Shown piece by piece: positions 10,946 to 50,306 of a stretch of 64,000 nucleotides of DNA. Origin of the DNA: Candidatus Kuenenia stuttgartensis (GTDB lineage: Bacteria; Planctomycetota; Planctomycetia; Pirellulales; UBA1268); assembly GCA_945897435.1 (NCBI GenBank), contig CAMDFJ010000004.1, forward strand, positions 10,316 through 74,315. The letters are read 5' to 3'. The stretch's first letter is position 1. Each line of letters opens with the position of its first letter. The position numbers and the translations under genes are program-made. The notes below the pieces were generated by a model. The model ran no database searches and was not told where the DNA came from. It saw nothing but the letters and a program-made list of their open reading frames with translations.

Positions 10946-12235
10946 ATGTCCGCCACCAATCAATCGACATCCGTTCCACCCGCCGAGACGACGCCGAGCA
11001 AGGCCGCGCTGGGCGTCATTTTCCTGACCGTCTTCATCGATCTGCTCGGCTTCGGCATCGTGCTGCCCGTGATGCCGAGGCAGGTCAAACCCTACCTCGA
11101 CGCCCTCGGCTTCTCGCCGCTCGCCGGCGGAGTCGTGATCGGTCTTTTGTTCTCGGTGTTCTCGCTGATGCAGTTCCTGTTCAGTCCGATCTGGGGCCGG
11201 CTCTCCGACCGGATCGGACGCCGTCCAATCCTGCTCCTGAGTCTGCTCGGCTCGGTCGTGTTCTACGCTCTCTACGGACTCGCGGTCACGCTGCCGGTGG
11301 CGCAGGCCGGTCTGGCGATCGGCCTGATGATGCTCTCCCGCGTCGGGGCCGGCATCGCCGGCGCCAGCGTTGGCACCGCCGCCGCCGTGATCGCCGACTC
11401 GACGACGCCAGACAACCGGGCCCGAGGAATGGCACTGATCGGGATCGCCTTCGGTGCCGGTTTCACGCTCGGCCCGCTGATCGCCTACTTCGGTCTGGCG
11501 CTGTTCTCGCGGCAGCCCTGGGGCGTGGGGGCGCTGGCTTCGATGCTTTCCCTGGTCGCGCTGATTTTCGCGGCCACGGTGTTTCGCGAAACCCGCCGCC
11601 CCGGAGCCGGTACGGCGAAGGATTTTTTCAGCCTTTCCCGCAGTCTCGACGTGCTCCGCCAGCCTTTGGTCGGCCCGCTCGTGCTGACCTACTTCCTCTC
11701 GATCTTCGCCTTCGCCAACTTCGAGGCCACCCTGGCCCGGTTCACGCAGGAGGGATTCGGGATGACCGACGACGACAACTTCCTCGTCTTCGCCTCGATC
11801 GGGGCGATGCTGATGGTCGCCGGAGGCCTCTACCGCCCGCTGGCCAAGCGATTCCCGGAATCGCGGCTGCTCAAGGCTGGACTGATGATGATGGCTGTCG
11901 GTCTCGGGGGTCTCGGGCTCGTGGCCTGGGCGGTGCACAACGATCCGGCAGGCTGGCAGAAACCGCTGTTCTATCTGGCGTCAGCGGCGGCGATCGCCGG
12001 ATTTGCATTCGTGAATCCATCGGTGTCGGCGCTGATCTCAAAACTGGCAGATGCCGACCGGCAGGGGGAGGTGCTCGGCGTCAACCAGTCGTTCGCCTCG
12101 CTGGGGCGGATCCTCGGGCCGTTCGCCGGCTCGCTCCTGTTCGCGATGCATCCCTCGCGGACGCTACCGTATCTGGTCGCGGTCGCGACCCTGGCGCTCG
12201 TGGCAATCCTTCAGCCGCGTGTCGCCAGGCGTTGA
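10946..12235 (+). CDS. MFS transporter (drug-efflux/Tet-like)
   Basis: Multiple hydrophobic spans. MFS loop motif 'GRLSDRIGRRPILL'. Start at ATG 10946 ('MSATNQS'). Confidence 0.85.
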   Translation: MSATNQSTSVPPAETTPSKAALGVIFLTVFIDLLGFGIVLPVMPRQVKPYLDALGFSPLAGGVVIGLLFSVFSLMQFLFSPIWGRLSDRIGRRPILLLSLLGSVVFYALYGLAVTLPVAQAGLAIGLMMLSRVGAGIAGASVGTAAAVIADSTTPDNRARGMALIGIAFGAGFTLGPLIAYFGLALFSRQPWGVGALASMLSLVALIFAATVFRETRRPGAGTAKDFFSLSRSLDVLRQPLVGPLVLTYFLSIFAFANFEATLARFTQEGFGMTDDDNFLVFASIGAMLMVAGGLYRPLAKRFPESRLLKAGLMMMAVGLGGLGLVAWAVHNDPAGWQKPLFYLASAAAIAGFAFVNPSVSALISKLADADRQGEVLGVNQSFASLGRILGPFAGSLLFAMHPSRTLPYLVAVATLALVAILQPRVARR

Positions 12236-12294: not shown

Positions 12295-13200
12295 ATGAAA
12301 TTCGCAGCACCGCTCCCGATTGTGGCCGCCCCGCGACGTTCCCCGGCCGCGGCCTGCGCCGACTGGAGTGGAGGCCGCGGCCTGCTCGTCGTCGGGCACG
12401 GAACGGCCGACAGCGTCGGCGCCGCCGAAACCCGTGAGATCGCCGACCGTGTGGCTGAACTGCTGGGAAATGTCCCGGTGGAACTCGGATTCCTGGAGGT
12501 CATCGGGCCCACGATCGACGAGGCGCTCGAGCGGCTGGCCCGCCGCGGCTGCCACGAGATCGTGGCGGCCCCGCTGCTGCTGTTCACGGCCGGGCATGCC
12601 CGTCGCGACGTGCCCGAGGCCATCGCCTCGTCCGCGGCCAGGCTCGGACTCGAGGTCAGGCAGTCGGCGGCGTTCGGCTGCCATCCGCAGATCGTTGCGA
12701 TCTCCCGTCAGCGTCGCTGCGAGACACTCCATGCCCTGGTGCCACTGGCCCCGGAGGAAACGGTTCTGCTGATGGTCGGGAGGGGCTCGAGCGATCCGGC
12801 CGCGGCAGGTCAGTTGGCCGAATTCGCCCAGGCCACGATCGAACCTGGGCCCCACGCCGTCGGGCGGGACATCTCCTGCGGCCGGACGATCTTCGGGTTC
12901 GTCGCCGCGGCCCGCCCCACGGTTCCCGAGGCGATCGAGATCGCGTCAGGGGTTGAAAATGTCCGTCGGGTGATCGTGCAACCGCACCTTTTGTTCCGCG
13001 GCCACGTAGAAGAGCAGGTCGAGGCCTGCCTCCGCGGCGCCCGCGAAGCGCATCCGCAGATCGAATGGGTGCAGGTGCGTCGGCTCGGCCCAGACCCGCT
13101 CGTGGCCGCCGCGCTCGTCGACAGGGCCACCGCCGTGGTCTGGAACGGCATGCGAGATGGTTTTTCAGAGCGAAAGACGATCTCGCCAGACGGGGCGTGA
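12295..13200 (+). CDS. cbiX: Sirohydrochlorin cobalto/ferrochelatase, two-domain CbiX type
   Basis: Duplicated 'LLVVGHGT...' and 'LLMVGRGSSDP...' half-domains, plus 'VAAPLLLFTAGHARRD' and 'VQPHLLFRGH'. Alternative TTG start at 12232 overlaps the MFS stop. Confidence 0.8.
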   Translation: MKFAAPLPIVAAPRRSPAAACADWSGGRGLLVVGHGTADSVGAAETREIADRVAELLGNVPVELGFLEVIGPTIDEALERLARRGCHEIVAAPLLLFTAGHARRDVPEAIASSAARLGLEVRQSAAFGCHPQIVAISRQRRCETLHALVPLAPEETVLLMVGRGSSDPAAAGQLAEFAQATIEPGPHAVGRDISCGRTIFGFVAAARPTVPEAIEIASGVENVRRVIVQPHLLFRGHVEEQVEACLRGAREAHPQIEWVQVRRLGPDPLVAAALVDRATAVVWNGMRDGFSERKTISPDGA

Positions 13201-13261
13201 GATGGCACAATGCAGCGTTGCGAACGGAGTCCCGAACGGTTTCCTTGAGAGGAACGGCATC

Positions 13262-15466
13262 ATGGGCATGACGGATCTGAGGCAGGCTGGTCGGGGGCTG
13301 GAGTTCAACCGGATGGCGGGGCGACTCGCCGGGAGGATGCCCGCGGCCGTCCGTGTCGTGGCCTTCGCGCTCGGGCTGTCACTCCTTGCAGCCGCGGCAG
13401 GCCGGGCGGAGCAGCCCCCCACGGCCCTCGCCGCCAACGCGGTCCAGCAGACCGCGGCCAAGCCGGGGCCCAACGACCGGCAGATCACGCTCGCCGTCCG
13501 CAGCTACCTCGAGCGGGAGCACTTCACCCGCAGGCCGATCGATGACGAGATCGCCCGTCGCTGGTTTGGGATCTTCATCGAGTCGCTCGATCCGATGAAA
13601 AACTATTTTCTGCAGAGCGACATCGATGCCTTCACGCAGAAGCGGGATTCGCTCGACGACCTCGTCAAGCGAGGCGATGTGAGCTTCGCCTACGAGGTCT
13701 ACAACCGCTTTCTCGAGCGGGTCGACGCCCGACTGCCGCTGATTGAGAAGCTGATCAACATGCCGCACGACTTCACCAAGCCGGAGTCGATCATCGTCGA
13801 TCGCGACGACACCGTCTGGGCGGCGAACGAGGCCGAGGCCGAGGACAATTGGCGGAAGCGGATCAAGTACGACCTGCTGGTTCAGAAGATGGAAAAGACG
13901 CCCCCCGAGGAGGCGAAGGACAAGCTCCGTCGCCGCTATGCGAGCTTCTCCAAGCGGATGCACCAGATGACGGCCGACGAACTGCTCGAAACCTACCTCT
14001 CGTCGCTCACCAGCAGCCTCGATCCGCACACCAGTTTCATGTCCCCGGGCACGCTCGAGAACTTCGAGATCGGGATGCGGCTCCAGCTCGACGGCATCGG
14101 CGCCTCGCTCAAGGGTGAGGACGGCTATACGACGGTGGCCGAACTGGTCCCCGGCGGGGCCGCCGACAGGGACGGACGGCTTCAGAAAAAGGACCGCATC
14201 CTCGGCGTGGGGCAGGGGGCCGGAGGCGAGATCGTCGACGTCGTCGACCTCAACCTCAACGAGGTCGTGAAACTCGTCCGCGGCAAGCGTGGCACGATCG
14301 TGCGGCTGAAGGTGGTTCCCGTAGGTCAGACAGCCCCGAAGATCTACGACATCACCAGGGCCAAGATCGAACTCAAGGACAGTGAGGCCCGTGGCGAGGT
14401 GATCGAGGAGGGCCGCAAGCCCGACGGAACCCCCTACCGGATCGGCGTCATCAACCTGCCGAGCTTCTACATGGACATGGCCGGAGCCCGTCAGGGACAG
14501 GCGGAATACAAGAGCAGCACCCGCGACACCAAGCGGTTGCTCGACGAGTTCAGGCAGAAGGGGGTCGATTGCGTCGTCCTCGATCTGCGGAACAACGGCG
14601 GTGGCTCGCTGCCCGAGTCGATCTCGCTGACGGGCCTGTTCATCGACAGCGGGCCGGTGGTGCAGATCAAGGACGCCGACAAGCGGGTGCAGCAGTATGA
14701 CGACGTCGATCCAGGCGTCTCCTGGGACGGTCCGCTCGTCGTGCTGACCAACAAGTTCAGCGCCAGTGCCAGCGAGATCGTGGCCGGTGCCATCCAAGAC
14801 TACGGTCGGGGACTCGTGATCGGCGACAACGCCACCCACGGCAAGGGGACGGTGCAGAGCCTGCTCGATCTTGGGCGGCAGCTTTTTCAGCGTCTGCCAA
14901 ACGCCCCCTCGCTCGGCGCCATCAAGATCACGATGCAGCAGTTCTACAGGCCGGGCGGTCTGAGCACCCAACTCGAGGGCGTGAAGAGCGACGTCGAACT
15001 GCCGAGCATCACCACGCATCTGCCGGTGGGCGAATCGGATCTCGACCATGCCATCGCCTTCGACAAGGTTCCGCAGGCCACGTTCCAGCCGAGTGGTCGC
15101 GTCTCGGTCGACATGCTCAAGACGCTGCGTGACCGCTCCGCGAAGCGTATCGCCGACAGCAAGGATTTCGCCAAGGTCCAGCAGGACATCGCCCAATACC
15201 GGAAGCGAAAGAACGAAAAGACGATCTCGCTCGTCGAGTCGGAGTTTGAACGGCAGTGGAACGAGGGGAAGGCCGCCGATGACGAGGAGAAGAAACTCGA
15301 GGAATCGGCCGATCCGAAGCGACCGGTCGTGAAGCGGGACTACTACTTCGGCGAGGCGATGAATGTCTCGGTGGACTACCTCAACATGCTCAAGGGAGGC
15401 GCCGCCGGCCTGGCCCGCACCGCGACCACGACTGAGCCCCAGGAACTGCAGCCTGTCGGCCGATAG
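13262..15466 (+). CDS. S41 family C-terminal processing (tail-specific) peptidase
   Basis: PDZ block followed by 'LDLRNNGGGSL', 'NKFSASASEIVAGAIQD', 'GDNATHGKGTVQ' (Ser/Lys dyad region). Signal-like 'VVAFALGLSLLAAAAGRA'. GAGAGGAA lies 7 nt upstream of ATG 13262. Alternative start at 13202. Confidence 0.88.
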   Translation: MGMTDLRQAGRGLEFNRMAGRLAGRMPAAVRVVAFALGLSLLAAAAGRAEQPPTALAANAVQQTAAKPGPNDRQITLAVRSYLEREHFTRRPIDDEIARRWFGIFIESLDPMKNYFLQSDIDAFTQKRDSLDDLVKRGDVSFAYEVYNRFLERVDARLPLIEKLINMPHDFTKPESIIVDRDDTVWAANEAEAEDNWRKRIKYDLLVQKMEKTPPEEAKDKLRRRYASFSKRMHQMTADELLETYLSSLTSSLDPHTSFMSPGTLENFEIGMRLQLDGIGASLKGEDGYTTVAELVPGGAADRDGRLQKKDRILGVGQGAGGEIVDVVDLNLNEVVKLVRGKRGTIVRLKVVPVGQTAPKIYDITRAKIELKDSEARGEVIEEGRKPDGTPYRIGVINLPSFYMDMAGARQGQAEYKSSTRDTKRLLDEFRQKGVDCVVLDLRNNGGGSLPESISLTGLFIDSGPVVQIKDADKRVQQYDDVDPGVSWDGPLVVLTNKFSASASEIVAGAIQDYGRGLVIGDNATHGKGTVQSLLDLGRQLFQRLPNAPSLGAIKITMQQFYRPGGLSTQLEGVKSDVELPSITTHLPVGESDLDHAIAFDKVPQATFQPSGRVSVDMLKTLRDRSAKRIADSKDFAKVQQDIAQYRKRKNEKTISLVESEFERQWNEGKAADDEEKKLEESADPKRPVVKRDYYFGEAMNVSVDYLNMLKGGAAGLARTATTTEPQELQPVGR

Positions 15467-15546
15467 CCGGGTTCATGCACACGAAGGGCCAGAGCGACGA
15501 GACTTTTGCCGCCAAGAAGCCGGCACGACTCGCTTCCGCAAACATA

Positions 15547-15566
15547 CGGCATCCTGCCGTTGTTTG
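15547..15566 (+). terminator. Weak hairpin plus T-rich tail downstream of the S41 peptidase gene
   Basis: CGGCA-TCC-TGCCG followed by TTGTTTG. The stem is short, so this is low confidence. Confidence 0.25.
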
Positions 15567-15576
15567 CCCGGCCGGC

Positions 15577-16434
15577 TCATAGGTTTGCTGCCGCCAGGAT
15601 TGCGTCGATGCCCTTGAAGGAGTCAGGGTAGGCGAGCCTGAGCGGGATGTCGTGAAACAGCAGTCCCGGATCGACCCGTTTGTCGGCGCCTCGTGTCCGG
15701 GTCGCAGTGGTGTCCCATGTTGGCGGTGGGCTGCCCGACTGCCGGGCCAGATGGGCATACCAATCGCGGCGTCGGACCGGCACTCCGTCGGAAACGACAT
15801 ACAGTGATCTTGCCGCCGGGGCCGCCGTCACGGCTGACACCACCTGAGCCGCATCGTCGACATGGATCAGGTTCAGCCAACTGTCGGGATCGGCGGCGAT
15901 CGGCCTGCCGGCCCTGAGATCCTCGAGCCGCGGCAGCCGGCCCGGTCCGTAGAGGCCGGCGAACCGAAGTGCCGTTCCGCGATCGCCAACCCGCGACTGC
16001 ACCAATGCCTCGGCCTCGAGCAGCACGACGCCCGCCTCACGGGAAGGATGGGCCGGCGTCGATTCGTTCACCGCAGCGCCGTCGTCGTTGCCCCAGACAC
16101 CGGTCGAACTCGAAAGGATCGTCCGGGGCCGTGGCGGGAGCCGATCGAGAATACGGCCGAGTCCGAGCAGGTGCACATCCCTCGGGGTCGAACCCGCCGT
16201 CCGATCGAAGCCGACGGCCCAGAACAGCGTCTCGACCGGCGGCAGTTCGGGAATCGAATCGGGCATGGAGACGTCGCCGATCAGCGGATGGATGCCGAGG
16301 GCGGCCAGTTCGCGGGCCCGTTCCTGCGACCGTGTCAGTCCCCAGACCCGGGAGCCCTGCGACAGCCATAGGGCCGCAACCCGGCGGCCCAGATAGCCGC
16401 AGCCGACGATCAGCCGTGAGGGGGTTTCGATCAT
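15577..16434 (-). CDS. NAD(P)-binding Rossmann-fold protein (SDR / epimerase-dehydratase-like)
   Basis: N-terminal 'LIVGCGYLGRRVA' dinucleotide-binding motif. ATGA overlap with the ruvX stop. Confidence 0.75.
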   Translation of the reverse strand: MIETPSRLIVGCGYLGRRVAALWLSQGSRVWGLTRSQERARELAALGIHPLIGDVSMPDSIPELPPVETLFWAVGFDRTAGSTPRDVHLLGLGRILDRLPPRPRTILSSSTGVWGNDDGAAVNESTPAHPSREAGVVLLEAEALVQSRVGDRGTALRFAGLYGPGRLPRLEDLRAGRPIAADPDSWLNLIHVDDAAQVVSAVTAAPAARSLYVVSDGVPVRRRDWYAHLARQSGSPPPTWDTTATRTRGADKRVDPGLLFHDIPLRLAYPDSFKGIDAILAAANL

Positions 16435-46306: not shown

Positions 46307-47472
46307 CGGGCCGCCTCGTAGAGCAGCATCAGATCGTGGGCCGCGACCGGTCGGGGGTTGAATCCGGCGGTCCACTGGGAAGCCGCTGCGGCGGCAAGTC
46401 CGGCGACATCGACCGAACCGAGCCCAAGCTGCCCGAGCGAGGTCGCCAATCCGGCCTGTCGCAGAAGATCGCCGAGCCAAAGGCCGAGATCGCCACCGGC
46501 CGTCGGAGCTGCAGCCAGCTGGGCCTCGAGTTCTGCATATCGGTCGGGGATCCCGCCCTCGATTGCGGCATTGAACCGCACGACGTGCGGCAGCATCAGG
46601 CCGACCGCCTGCCCATGGACGACACCGTGCATCGCCGTGAGGGGGTTCGCCAGTGCATGAGCGGCGCCGAGCATGGCGTTTTCGATCGCCAATCCGGCCC
46701 AGGCCGCCCCGAGCTGCACGGCCGAGCGGGCGGCGACGTCGTCTGGTTCTGAAAATACCCGGGGCAGGTGGCTGGAGAGCAGCCGCCAGGCCTCGAGCGA
46801 GAAGATCCGCGAAGCCGGTGTGGCTGCCCGACTAACATGGCTCTCGATCGCGTGCGAGATCGCGTCGATGCCGGTCAGGGCGGCCACGCGGGCGGGCTGC
46901 GTGAGCGTGAGCGTGACGTCGAGGATCGCCGTTCGGAAGGCCGCCCGACTGTCGCCGCAGGCCATCTTGCGACCGCTCTCCGGGTCGCTGATGAGCGCGA
47001 ACGACTGCGTCTCGCTGCCGGTGCCGGCGGTGGTGGGCACAGCGATCGAGGGCAGCATCGGCCCCGTCGCCCGGCCACGGCCCTGGTAGTCGTGCATCGT
47101 TCCGCCGCAGGAGAAGAGGAAGTTGATCCCCTTTGCACAGTCCATCGAACTGCCGCCACCGAGGCCGACGATCAGGTCAGGGGCAAAGTCGCGGGCGAAC
47201 GCGGCTCCGGCATCGACATGAGTGGTGGTCGGATTTTCGCCGAACTCCGAGAAGCATTCGACCTCGAGGCCGGCCCGGGCGAGCGACTCGATGCCGATGG
47301 CGGCATGGCCGGCTGCAGCCACTCCCGGGTCGCTCACGAGCAGGGCCCGGCTGCCGCGCATTTCTCGGACCAGTTCCCGCCCCAGTTCTCCCAGTCGAAC
47401 GATCGAGCCCGCTCCGACCACGAGCCTCGTGTGCGAACAGAACTCGAAGTTTTCGCAGTCGCCGGCCATCAT
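46303..47472 (-). CDS. Iron-containing (group III) alcohol dehydrogenase
   Basis: 'LIVGLGGGSSMDCAKGI', 'VPTTAGTGSE', and His-rich metal site 'ISHAIESH...GAAHALANPL..HG..HG'. Confidence 0.9.
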   Translation of the reverse strand: MMAGDCENFEFCSHTRLVVGAGSIVRLGELGRELVREMRGSRALLVSDPGVAAAGHAAIGIESLARAGLEVECFSEFGENPTTTHVDAGAAFARDFAPDLIVGLGGGSSMDCAKGINFLFSCGGTMHDYQGRGRATGPMLPSIAVPTTAGTGSETQSFALISDPESGRKMACGDSRAAFRTAILDVTLTLTQPARVAALTGIDAISHAIESHVSRAATPASRIFSLEAWRLLSSHLPRVFSEPDDVAARSAVQLGAAWAGLAIENAMLGAAHALANPLTAMHGVVHGQAVGLMLPHVVRFNAAIEGGIPDRYAELEAQLAAAPTAGGDLGLWLGDLLRQAGLATSLGQLGLGSVDVAGLAAAAASQWTAGFNPRPVAAHDLMLLYEAAR

Positions 47473-48908
47473 CCGGCAACGCCAGCCGGAGCTTCCGCGG
47501 CCAGTTGCAGAGCCCGTGATCGGTAGAGGAAGTCGATGATGTTGCCCTCATGCGGCTGGAGCCAGTCGAGCTTCGTCGTCGGAATCGGGCCGATGTTGAG
47601 CCTGTCGATCGCCGGGGAGTCGATGAGCTCTGCCTGGAAGGTGGCGTCGTCGGTGACCGCGGTGGCGACGAGCGTCGGCCCGATCCGCTCGAGCATCCGG
47701 GCCTGCGGGCACTCGACAACGTTCACGAAGGGAAACATGTACTCGGCCCTGGCGATCTCTGGATCGGGAGTCGCACAGTGGACGACCGTCGGTCGCAGCC
47801 AGCCGCAGCGTTCCCCCTCGACGAACCGCGGGCCGTAGGCCGCCGTGGCGTGGCTGACGCCGGCCGCGGCGAGGCCGGCCTCGATCTGCTCCCAGGTGGC
47901 CTTCGCCGCCCCCGGCACCGTGAAGGCGGCGAGGCGGGCTTCAGGATCCTCCGGCGGCCTGACGTCGATGGGGCCGAGCCGCTCGGCGAGGGCCTCGGCA
48001 ATCGCCTTCGTGTGTCGGCTGGCGTAGACCGCCGAGGCGTTGATGCAGCCCCGGCCGCTGTTTGCGGCGACGCTCTCGACGATCACGTCGAGATACCGTT
48101 CCCAGTCGTCCACGCAATCATCGCCGAGGAGGATCTTCGAGAAACCGGGACCGTGGACCTGAACGTTTGGATTGCCGCGATACTGCTCGACAGTCTTGGC
48201 ACTGCCGAAGATCATGCTCCTGCGGCAGCCCGCCAGCATGGTGGCGCCGACGTCGGTGGCCCCCGGGTAGAGGCCGATCGACTCGGCCGGAATGCCCGCC
48301 TCGATGAACGCCGCCGCCATCCGATAGGGCGTCCAGGGCTCCTGGCCGCCGGGCTTGAGCAGGAGCCCGACGCCGAGTGCGATCACCGGCAGCCAGAGCG
48401 TGTGCACGCCCGGGGAATTGGAGGGAAGCACGAGCCCGAGCACCGGCGACTGTGCCTGGTAGCTGACGACGACACCACGGTGCTCGCGGCCATAGCCCCG
48501 CCAGAGGATCTCGGGCGGCAGGCCCCGCGAGAGCGCGTCGAGCATCCGATCCATGTTCGAGAGCACGAACAGATTTTTCTGCATGTTCGACCGGCAGAGC
48601 GACTCGGGCAGGCCGGTCGTGGCCGACTGCTGCTTGACGAAGTCGTCTGGAGACTGCCGCGAGTCGCCCACCTGGAGCGTGCCGTGGGCGTAGAGGTTGC
48701 CCGCGGTCTGGAGCCGCTCGACGATCTCCTCCGGATCGATCGCCAAGAGGGCGGCCCGGGCCTGCCCCGCCTTCTGGAGATCGCGGCCCAGCATCGCACC
48801 TCCGACCTGGCTGACCTCGGCGATCGGCTCGCCGGTCAGGAAGTGGACGAGGTGGGTGCGTTCGAGTGACTCATACGGCTTGCCGAATCGCCAGGCGGGA
48901 AGGTGCAT
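47469..48908 (-). CDS. Non-canonical aldehyde-dehydrogenase-superfamily protein (acylating ALDH / LuxC-like acyl-CoA reductase candidate)
   Basis: ALDH-like layout: 'LGLVLPSNSPGVHTL...LLLKPG' and catalytic-Cys region 'ANSGRGCINASAVY'. The usual ELGG(K/N) Glu box reads 'HGPGFSKILLGDD'. AGGA upstream of ATG 48908. Confidence 0.8.
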   Translation of the reverse strand: MHLPAWRFGKPYESLERTHLVHFLTGEPIAEVSQVGGAMLGRDLQKAGQARAALLAIDPEEIVERLQTAGNLYAHGTLQVGDSRQSPDDFVKQQSATTGLPESLCRSNMQKNLFVLSNMDRMLDALSRGLPPEILWRGYGREHRGVVVSYQAQSPVLGLVLPSNSPGVHTLWLPVIALGVGLLLKPGGQEPWTPYRMAAAFIEAGIPAESIGLYPGATDVGATMLAGCRRSMIFGSAKTVEQYRGNPNVQVHGPGFSKILLGDDCVDDWERYLDVIVESVAANSGRGCINASAVYASRHTKAIAEALAERLGPIDVRPPEDPEARLAAFTVPGAAKATWEQIEAGLAAAGVSHATAAYGPRFVEGERCGWLRPTVVHCATPDPEIARAEYMFPFVNVVECPQARMLERIGPTLVATAVTDDATFQAELIDSPAIDRLNIGPIPTTKLDWLQPHEGNIIDFLYRSRALQLAAEAPAGVAG

Positions 48909-49007
48909 AGACGAGGATCCTGGATTGAAACTCTTGGGATTACGACGAAGATTCTAGCAACCTGCCCAAACCGCTGGCGACGGTCGAGGCCTCGACTTCA
49001 TAGGTGG

Positions 49008-49068
49008 GGAGGCGTCGCCCACTTCCGGGCGGAGCCCGGCAAGGCTGCACGGGCCATGGATGGCCGTG
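49008..49068. repeat. 61-bp direct repeat, copy 1
   Basis: GGAGGCGTCGCCCACTTCCGGGCGGAGCCCGGCAAGGCTGCACGGGCCATGGATGGCCGTG. Identical to 49104-49164. Confidence 0.95.
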
Positions 49069-49103
49069 ACTCCGGGTCGACACGGCCGAACGACTGCGAC
49101 GCT

Positions 49104-49164
49104 GGAGGCGTCGCCCACTTCCGGGCGGAGCCCGGCAAGGCTGCACGGGCCATGGATGGCCGTG
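49104..49164. repeat. 61-bp direct repeat, copy 2
   Basis: Perfect copy of 49008-49068, separated from it by a 35-bp spacer. Ends 11 nt before the stop codon of the upstream (minus-strand) gene. Confidence 0.95.
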
Positions 49165-49175
49165 CAGCCGTGAAA

Positions 49176-50306
49176 CTAGTACACGCCCACAGTCGTCGCG
49201 CCGGCCAGGGCCCTGAACGGGCGGACGCCGCTGATTCCGTCCCAGGGGTACTTTGCATAGGGAAGTTCCCGTTCCCCCTCGTCGCGTTCGAGGAAACCCG
49301 GCACGAAGGTCTCTTTCGTGAGCGTGGTCAACTTGACCCGTCCGGTGCCGCCGTAGGGCACGACGGAGTTCGTGTCGTCGAAGTTCACCACCTCGATCAC
49401 GGCCCTGGGCTGCGGGGCGTAGTAGGCGATCGTGTAGCCGTCGGCCGGCACGACCGGCCGCGAGGCGGCCAGGCCCATCAGTGTGTTGCCGTAGGTGGGC
49501 GTCATGTAGGCGCCGTCGAGCAGTTCCTCGACCGCGAACCGGGTCCACTGGGGCGTGAACTCGGTGCCGCCGGAGAAGATGCCCGTGATCCCCGCCTTGC
49601 GGATCGTCGTGCCCTTCTTTTCCAGGGCGAGGGCGAGGGACTCGAGCAGTTTCGGGGTGGTGAACATGCAGCGGACATCGTGCCCCGCCTCGAGGATCGT
49701 GATCACCTGGTCGATGCAGTGCTGCTTGTAGGCCTCGAGATGCTCCATCCAGCCCTTCTGGATCAGTTTGATGACCCAACGGGGATCGAGATCGACGCAG
49801 AAGCAGATGCCACCGCGAAACTGGGCCAGGTGTTCGATCGACAGCCGCAGTCGGCGGGGACCGCTGGGGCCGAGCATCAGCCAGTTGGCTCCGCGGGGAA
49901 AAAACTCCTCCGGCAGCGTGTCGCTGAATTGCTCGTAGTCGGTGCGGAAGTCGCGGATGTTGACCCGCGACTTGGGAACGCCGGTCGTGCCGCCCGTCTC
50001 GAAGACGTAGGCTGGCTGGTCGGCGAAGCCCTTCGGTATCCAGCGGCGAACCGGGCCCCCGCGGAGCCACTCATCCTCGAACGGAGGAAACTTTTTCAGG
50101 TCGTCGTAACAGCCGACCTCCTTGATCGGGTCGAAGCTGAGCGAGCGGGCGTAGTCGAGCCAGAACGGGCAGCCGGTCGAGGGGTGGAAATGCCAGGCCA
50201 TCATCTCCACGGTGTGGGCGTCGAGCGCCGCCCGTGCCCCCGCAACGGCAGCATCGTCGGCGACCTCGAACACGGGAGGCTTGGCGGTGGAGTTGACCGT
50301 GGCCAT
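49176..50306 (-). CDS. Adenylate-forming enzyme (PaaK / coenzyme-F390-synthetase / LuxE-like)
   Basis: P-loop-like 'FETGGTTGVPKS' near residue 105 and 'TPTYGNTLMG' (YGxTE-like). 376 aa. GAGGA lies 8 nt upstream of the ATG. Confidence 0.8.
   Translation of the reverse strand: MATVNSTAKPPVFEVADDAAVAGARAALDAHTVEMMAWHFHPSTGCPFWLDYARSLSFDPIKEVGCYDDLKKFPPFEDEWLRGGPVRRWIPKGFADQPAYVFETGGTTGVPKSRVNIRDFRTDYEQFSDTLPEEFFPRGANWLMLGPSGPRRLRLSIEHLAQFRGGICFCVDLDPRWVIKLIQKGWMEHLEAYKQHCIDQVITILEAGHDVRCMFTTPKLLESLALALEKKGTTIRKAGITGIFSGGTEFTPQWTRFAVEELLDGAYMTPTYGNTLMGLAASRPVVPADGYTIAYYAPQPRAVIEVVNFDDTNSVVPYGGTGRVKLTTLTKETFVPGFLERDEGERELPYAKYPWDGISGVRPFRALAGATTVGVY

Follow-up and report, generated by a model that had tools for sequence, protein, structure and literature searches.

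The window analysed here is a 64,000-nt stretch of DNA from a planctomycete metagenome-assembled genome (MAG) assigned to Candidatus Kuenenia stuttgartensis (assembly GCA_945897435.1; GTDB lineage Pirellulales, UBA1268). It corresponds to contig C4:10316-74315 of this 3.02-Mb, 205-contig MAG, called G000 below, which has 66% G+C and is an estimated 96% complete. On the minus strand of the window, a gene for an adenylate-forming-enzyme-like protein (weak Pfam AMP-binding match, 27.3 bits, under the 29.9 cut-off) is followed by a gene for a protein of the aldehyde dehydrogenase (ALDH) superfamily. The 267 nt from the stop codon of the first to the ATG of the second carry the element studied here, a perfect 61-nt direct repeat containing hairpins. 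An initial annotation, made from the letters of the DNA and a list of its open reading frames (ORFs), had remarked that all other junctions of this operon measure 0-71 nt, which matches the ORF list. Except where indicated, the element is read on the mRNA (minus) strand, and coordinates are collected in Table 1.

Table 1. Features of the gap between the adenylating-enzyme and ALDH genes, the two genes themselves and a further family member in the window (window positions)
Feature	Position	Strand	Description
Upstream gene	49176-50306	-	376-aa adenylate-forming-enzyme-like protein; stop TAG 49176-49178; from ORF list
Leader U-UUCAC	49170-49175	-	links stop codon to first hairpin; family signature stop-N-TTCAC; read from sequence
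H3'	49139-49169	-	13-bp hairpin GGCUGCACGGCCAUCCAUGGCCCGUGCAGCC with one bulged base; loop CAUCCAUG (CAUGGAUG on + strand); followed by UUG
H2'	49119-49138 (core 49135-49121)	-	CCGGGC-UCC-GCCCGG; GGA triloop on + strand; -11.6 kcal/mol
H1'	49096-49114	-	GCGACGC-CUCCA-GCGUCGC; -11.5 kcal/mol, z = -3.9
Spacer between 61-nt units	49069-49103		35 nt, single occurrence in genome
Distal truncated copy	49008-49068	-	100% identical to 49104-49164; matched by model R2
Palindrome GTCGAGGCCTCGAC	48983-48996		weak hairpin, -4.3 kcal/mol, z = -1.8
Promoter-like site	48951-48980	-	TCGCCA-18 nt-TAGAAT; TG upstream of -10; 43 nt before ALDH ATG
Downstream gene	47469-48908	-	479-aa ALDH-superfamily protein; Pfam Aldedh 69.1 bits
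Decayed family member	15532-15598	+	R2 38.4 bits, E 8e-9; from sequence and ORFs

A repeat search of the window returned the two 61-nt units, 100% identical and 96 nt apart from start to start, so that the perfect duplicate described initially was borne out by both search and sequence. Recurrence of an exact 61-mer inside 1.2 kb is far beyond chance. Both inverted repeats that had been attributed to each unit are present, namely CCGGGC-GGA-GCCCGG and CACGGGCCAT-GG-ATGGCCGTG, the latter with one bulged G. The further palindrome GTCGAGGCCTCGAC exists as well, although it lies 2 nt to the left of the place first given for it. Outside the 61 nt, identity stops sharply and the flanks of the two units show no significant likeness (p about 0.12 and 0.5). 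The 35-nt spacer holds one H1 arm and a weak GTCG...CGAC palindrome, and had no exact match among metagenome contigs. A scan of the gap for tRNA and tmRNA found none; 22 nt of the unit resemble the 3' end of a tRNA on contig C164 (E 0.046), which was taken as chance.

The two units had been presented as equals. Their identity is real, but the gene-proximal one (49104-49164) continues into a complete module of three hairpins, whereas the distal one is cut at both ends. The complete module runs from the TAG stop codon through U and UUCAC to a 13-bp hairpin with loop CAUCCAUG (H3'), then UUG, a CUCCG-loop hairpin (H2') and a CCUCC-loop hairpin (H1'). The 61-nt identity spans only the inner part of this module: of H1', only the loop and one arm lie inside the repeat, and the exact H1' hairpin is unique in the genome. 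H3' folds with -23.8 kcal/mol (z = -5.5), and an identical H3 copy is found at C35:19679-19707 of G000. The distal copy starts, on the sense strand, with GAG-UCACGG joined directly to CCAUCCAUGG, with 8 nt (CUGCACGG) of the H3' 5' arm absent. It retains H2' and stops within the CCUCC loop of H1', and its H3' remnant folds weakly (-9.5 kcal/mol). To judge from its sequence, this copy seems to have been joined at its 5' edge between two CACGG direct repeats, losing the 8 nt that lay between.

The first lead to a wider family was that the 3' half of the 61-nt unit matched other contigs of the genome. Seen in context, the hairpins of this family share an invariant centre, GGCCATGGATGGCC, and have stems that differ yet still pair. 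In an alignment of nine H3 copies, 94% of cells were paired and double changes occurred in 5 of 13 pairs; none of 500 shuffles gave a covariation signal as high, and the signal collapsed once the partner was slid. A model of the CCAUGGAUGG-loop H3 subtype (R1) found about 12 copies in the genome and scored H3' of the window at 68.3 bits. A second, covariance model (R2) was built from 15 other copies with the window locus left out (double changes in 11 of 20 pairs, 97% of cells paired). R2 matched the complete module of the window (49118-49176, minus strand, 37.1 bits, E 1.8e-8) over model positions 1-58 of 58, with the H2' hairpin, counterpart of the family's CCGGC-UCC-GCCGG, aligned at the H2' positions. 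The truncated copy was also matched (49022-49072, minus strand, 19.7 bits, E 0.0013), its own UCACGG leader being aligned. Across the 3.0-Mb genome R2 had at least 105 matches, a lower bound for which 150 candidates were scored. The module of the window is therefore a member of a stop-codon-abutting, three-hairpin repeat family.

The family-wide unit reads, on the mRNA, stop, N, UUCAC, H3' (loop CAUCC(A)UG), UUG(G), H2' (CUCCG) and H1' (CCUCC). Written as DNA, the parent-family unit begins with N-TTCAC, followed by H3' as GGAAAATCTCGGCATC[C/G]TGCCGAATTTTCC or GCAAACACACGGCATCCTGCCGTTGTTTGC, TTGG, H2' (CGACC-TCC-GGTCG or CCGGC-TCC-GCCGG), CTGG and H1' (CCCGGCCCTCCGGGCC). The window locus carries the same order, with GGCUGCACGGCCAUCCAUGGCCCGUGCAGCC-UUG-CCGGGCUCCGCCCGG giving the CAUCC(N)UG loop, the UUG(G) linker and the CUCCG loop, and with TAG-T-TTCAC at 49178-49170 on the minus strand. 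The parent unit is often trailed by a GTGG-tagged repetitive extragenic palindrome (REP), GACAGGC-TTCA-GCCTGTC. REPs of the form GACAGGC-NNNN-GCCTGTC occupy about 226 sites in G000, mostly GTGG- and rarely GTAG-tagged (e.g. C61:6430-6700, C78:13391-13560, C93:482-700); the tagged REP is often the fourth hairpin of the 122-nt major unit and is absent at the window locus.

The initial annotation had noticed no additional copies in the window and had held that occurrence at many unrelated loci with no positional preference would mark a generic selfish repeat. The exact 61-mer indeed occurs at a single site in the whole genome, this locus. The window nevertheless holds a decayed relative on the plus strand (Table 1), between the convergent genes 13157-15466 (+) and 15577-16434 (-), with the stop codon of the latter falling within its broken second hairpin. 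The family as such is found at many unrelated loci and so has no operon-specific origin, yet its positional preference is strong. Among the arrays of G000 with a called neighbour, 32 of 45 follow a gene 3' end in sense orientation, and two more follow tRNA 3' ends; the exact sequence stop-N-TTCAC is present in 14 arrays. Gene calls were crude and based on G+C at third codon positions (GC3), and some opposite-orientation cases look like missed genes, so that these orientation figures are lower bounds. Several apparent exceptions have an uncalled stop codon beside TTCAC. Strand asymmetry was also seen for k-mers in all gene 3' flanks (TTCACGG 34 to 10, CATCCTG 47 to 17), a survey that brought the parent family to light. 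Among loci of about 60 other genomes, a long sense ORF borders 53 of the 96 H3 copies, 24 of which share one fixed (modal) offset, against 17 in an opposite-strand control that used a wider search window.

Arrays are a regular feature of the family. Two or more units occur at 15 of 48 loci, head-to-tail and with periods of 75 and 122 nt, and adjacent units have a median identity of 96%, compared with 81% for units of different loci. Since near-identical adjacent units are common in the family, the perfect 61-mer is an ordinary mark of family growth. Tandem pairs and triplets built on the H3 core of the window were found on eight contigs of other genomes (periods 48-100 nt), where they begin at stop-N-TTCAC or behind a tRNA. 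In one relative (G024), a tandem at the same adenylating/ALDH junction extends into the final codons of the gene, a sign of local duplication. Judged from these sequences, arrays appear to grow by local duplication or conversion. Chimeric first hairpins, with arms from two subtypes and an unpaired stem, were observed at C17:29304-29340, C49:27-63 and C49:344-380 of G000; their layout suggests recombination breaking within the loop. Repeat units less than 700 nt from a contig end amount to 28%, against 9.5% of the genome (about three-fold; e.g. C13:14, C49:27, C27:26039, C78:13549). This enrichment indicates that assembly breaks at the repeat and that copy numbers are underestimates.

All 15 sampled genomes of the genus carry the H3 subtype, each with 3-24 copies. 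It also turned up in 5 of 9 other genera of the family, with as many as 77 copies, and none was found in 16 other families of the order; copies per genome thus range from 0 to 77. The 21-mer H3 core was matched in Planctomycetota MAGs only. The ALDH gene has an ortholog in 41 of 41 relatives, and the length of the adenylating/ALDH junction among them lies between -1 nt, as in G002 and G023, where the two genes overlap in TGATG, and about 1020 nt. The junction is filled with major-type modules (G010 and G024; the leader only in G012), with an H3-type hairpin (G022), with elements of about 150 nt bounded by inverted repeats, or with two-gene cassettes resembling toxin-antitoxin pairs (G011, L041; G026, L057; G033, L061). 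The C-terminus of the upstream protein, ...GVY*, is unchanged in relatives whether or not the element is present. On sequence comparison, the junction is thus a variable insertion hot-spot among relatives. Six genus genomes carry the three-hairpin module at a second orthologous site, the 3' flank of ahcY (L062-L081). Neither loops nor flanks change there, while the H3' stem has been swapped wholesale with its pairing kept; between G006 and G004, for instance, double changes convert A-U to G-C and C-G to U-A. Five other genomes have, at this site, stop-N-TTCAC together with a remnant and a canonical U-tract terminator in place of the module.

The family resembles several known elements without coinciding with any. 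REPs tagged with GTAG/CGTC (Di Nocera et al. 2013, PMC3733652) are likewise short extragenic hairpins with many copies, a gene-end position and a tendency to pairs. Such REPs lie mostly downstream of ORFs, between co-directional or convergent genes, and can abut or supply stop codons; they often form head-to-tail dimers 20-100 bp apart and reach tens to hundreds of extragenic copies, and a role in stabilising or terminating mRNA 3' ends has been proposed for them (PMC3733652). In copy number and position, with at least 105 copies and most arrays after gene ends, the present family behaves as a REP. It does not in its tags, as none of H3', H2' and H1' ends in GTAG or CGTC: the sequences bordering H3' and H2' are TTCAC (the leader), TTG and AAG, and CGTC occurs only within the H1 stem. 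Conserved loops with variable stems are, moreover, the reverse of what typical REPs show. Bacterial interspersed mosaic elements (BIMEs), the clusters that REPs form in Proteobacteria, and REPINs (REP doublets forming hairpins) alternate in orientation, whereas the units here and all arrays seen are head-to-tail on one strand. As to miniature inverted-repeat transposable elements (MITEs), terminal inverted repeats are missing from the unit, and neither the locus nor the listed arrays showed a duplicated flank; a comparison of filled with empty junctions in relatives revealed no target-site duplication. Termination units made of several hairpins behind a stop codon have been proposed (PMC8355165), and these are like the module in having stable GC-rich hairpins in a row a few nt past the stop. 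The module differs from an intrinsic terminator in lacking a U-tract, in being a repeat common to many loci and in having an invariant loop. Finally, BOX elements of Streptococcus pneumoniae (boxA-boxB(n)-boxC) are modular hairpin boxes with a variable internal tandem count; they are intergenic, are predicted to form stable RNA structures and may affect their neighbours. BOX elements are not known to keep a fixed spacing to stop codons. The modular build, the variable number of tandem units and the intergenic hairpins are alike in BOX and in the present family, but the sequences are unrelated, the phylum is different and no module is shared. Our search of the planctomycete literature found no description of such an element, and the repeat family is, as far as this literature was searched, undescribed for planctomycetes.

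We consider it likely that two units of a lineage-specific REP/BIME/BOX-like modular hairpin repeat of freshwater Pirellulales-type planctomycetes, arrayed head-to-tail, make up the 61-nt repeat. Of the explanations proposed initially, the REP/MITE-like one was thus right as to kind, with a dispersed family placed behind stop codons and forming tandem arrays; the influence on mRNA stability or differential expression that went with it is plausible. A tandem structured RNA was a second proposal, and here the outcome was divided: the hairpins do show compensatory changes, but no Rfam family was reached at threshold. An Rfam scan at permissive E-values gave only sub-threshold matches, the best being RsmW at 22.1 bits. 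Counts of G·U versus A·C, taken as a guide to the strand that folds, were 6 versus 1 in the H3 set, in which 98% of pairs are Watson-Crick and the alignment is biased to the model strand, and 7 versus 5 at variable positions of the major family; the H2' base has the sole consistent wobbles, U·G and G·U, and these are invariant.

Several observations weigh against reading the locus as a plain repeat array with a role at the 3' end. No Y1/RAYT (PF01797), TnpB-type or IS110-type enzyme was matched in the 96%-complete G000 assembly; of 41 relatives, 31 have a PF01797 (Y1) match, among them 11 of the 15 genus genomes. Given the sharp end of the 61-nt identity and the unlike flanks, a plain 96-nt tandem duplication does not account for the layout; an old duplication of this kind was tried and rejected on the same ground. 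Constant loops with swapped stems at ahcY speak for more constraint than plain junk DNA would have. No terminator-like site was found in a scan of 48700-49400, and the tail of H3', UUGCC, has no U-tract. Canonical U-tract terminators do exist in the genus, and in two genomes arrays sit downstream of one. The lack of a U-tract here, together with arrays beyond canonical terminators, implies that the element is not simply 'the' terminator. On contig C5 of G000, two H3 hairpins lie about 35 nt ahead of the next co-directional gene, a position that speaks for read-through in at least some contexts; some arrays are too near the next gene for termination to be complete.

An alternative that makes more of this constraint is a selected 3'-untranslated-region RNA (or single-stranded DNA) element, in which the invariant loops CAUCCAUG, CUCCG and CCUCC would be bound by a protein or pair with Shine-Dalgarno/GGA sequences. 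These loops are anti-Shine-Dalgarno-like and complementary to GGA, and the tandem would double their dose at the operon. Invariant loops on covarying stems, the ahcY stem that was exchanged and remained paired in six genomes with constant loops and flanks, the strict orientation and the fixed spacing to the stop codon all favour it. The copy number, however, is high and very variable (0-77 per genome), chimeric, broken and decayed copies are typical of selfish repeats, and stem swaps are explicable by gene conversion between copies. We regard this alternative as unlikely. In its strongest form, the family would be a lineage-wide selected 3'-end element whose UCC loops are read by a dedicated partner, its placement one nt past stop codons and tRNA ends reflecting targeted insertion or copying. 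This form is quite unlikely; if it were true, the tandem here would represent a change in dose of a novel post-transcriptional signal.

The repeat could also be an assembly artefact, the true genome having one unit or some other number at a mis-resolved repeat loop. The MAG is in 205 contigs, the family is enriched near contig ends as described above, and no independent metagenome contig carried the 35-nt spacer. Against this, the spacer is unique and bounded by a unit on both sides, so that a unit-spacer-unit path should exist in the reads; the exact 61-mer offers no second locus with which this one could be confused; the two copies have different, non-repeated flanks; and eight independent assemblies of other genomes contain tandems of a similar kind. 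An artefact is on these grounds very unlikely. In a variant of it, the copy number could be wrong, with more than two units present.

Read on the plus strand, antisense to the operon, the module might instead be a CsrA/Rsm decoy RNA whose GGA-loop hairpins (C-GGA-G, CAUGGAUG, UGGAG) titrate CsrA. Each unit has GGA in three hairpin loops on that strand, and RsmW, the best Rfam match, is on that strand too. The 3-Mb genome has three PF02599 genes above cut-off, at 91.8, 73.8 and 62.2 bits; its CsrA-family genes lie at C78:8046-8201 (-), C23:3148-3291 (+) and C3:20061-20231 (+). Known decoys (CsrB, RsmZ, RsmW; Rfam clan CL00106) thus resemble the plus strand here in their several GGA-loop hairpins, with CsrA genes in the genome. 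They differ in that the module is under the Rfam threshold (RsmW gathering score 52, E 0.18 for the match), lies with its GGA strand systematically antisense to the abutting gene and has more than 100 dispersed copies, which is unlike a dedicated sRNA gene (small RNA gene). No plus-strand promoter-like site was found within 48700-49400, and about half of the H3 loops of the major family read CACGAUG on the plus strand, without GGA. The usual CsrA loop has 5-6 nt, and a C-G-closed GGA triloop is not usual, which also counts against a decoy. We judge a CsrA decoy highly improbable. Barely credible is the initial proposal of tandem operator sites for an internal promoter, taken here as operators or activator sites through which a transcription factor would control the ALDH half: two identical palindrome-bearing units do lie 28-190 nt upstream of a promoter-like -35 box, but the module stands behind more than 100 genes and tRNAs that are unrelated, often in convergent intervals with no promoter, relatives retain the GCTAGAAT box despite wholly different upstream inserts, and long GC-rich hairpins whose stems vary do not resemble operators bound by factors.

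With the lineage-specific repeat array as the preferred reading, its consequences for the two genes can be sketched. TCGCCA-18-TAGAAT is the sole sigma-70-like site found on either strand of 48700-49400. Most relatives in the genus, and G024, share a (G)GCTAGAAT box some 40 nt ahead of where ALDH starts. Termination, stabilisation and an internal promoter are all inferred here as roles of the locus. The second copy would have originated on the spot, when neighbouring units underwent slippage, unequal recombination or gene conversion. On transcription of the adenylating-enzyme gene, the three stable hairpins right after its stop codon would most likely form a 3'-end barrier and/or a partial terminator, and the upstream transcript would gain a protected and/or partly terminated 3' end. 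For their transcription, ALDH and the genes behind it would depend mainly on the promoter-like box of their own. In this strain, the adenylating-enzyme gene and ALDH probably belong to separate transcription units. Such a split of the operon would be a by-product of a selfish or semi-domesticated repeat and no purpose-built switch.

The repeat at this locus is genuine, yet ordinary as a case of its lineage-specific family, which does have some unusual regularities at the level of the family. The gap itself is best seen as a landing pad, filled in relatives with different repeats, toxin-antitoxin cassettes or nothing, and not as a bespoke regulatory site. The regularities of the family (stop-N-TTCAC, a single orientation, invariant loops with covarying stems, arrays) offer a tractable way into two questions, how small repeats reach gene ends and whether they are co-opted as 3'-end signals. 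The family also has a practical side, in that it fragments MAG assemblies of the lineage.

The elements of about 150 nt mentioned above have inverted-repeat ends GGCTTCGGGCTCCCC...GGGGAGCCCGAAGCC and hairpin loops CAGGAUG, CCUGGAGG or CCAUGGAUGG, in either orientation. They look, by sequence, like a second, MITE-like family with the same loop motif. They were observed at the adenylating/ALDH junction (L034, L040, L044, L053, L035-L037), in the rpoD 3' flank (L084, L087-L092) and at C88:~11750-11917 of G000.

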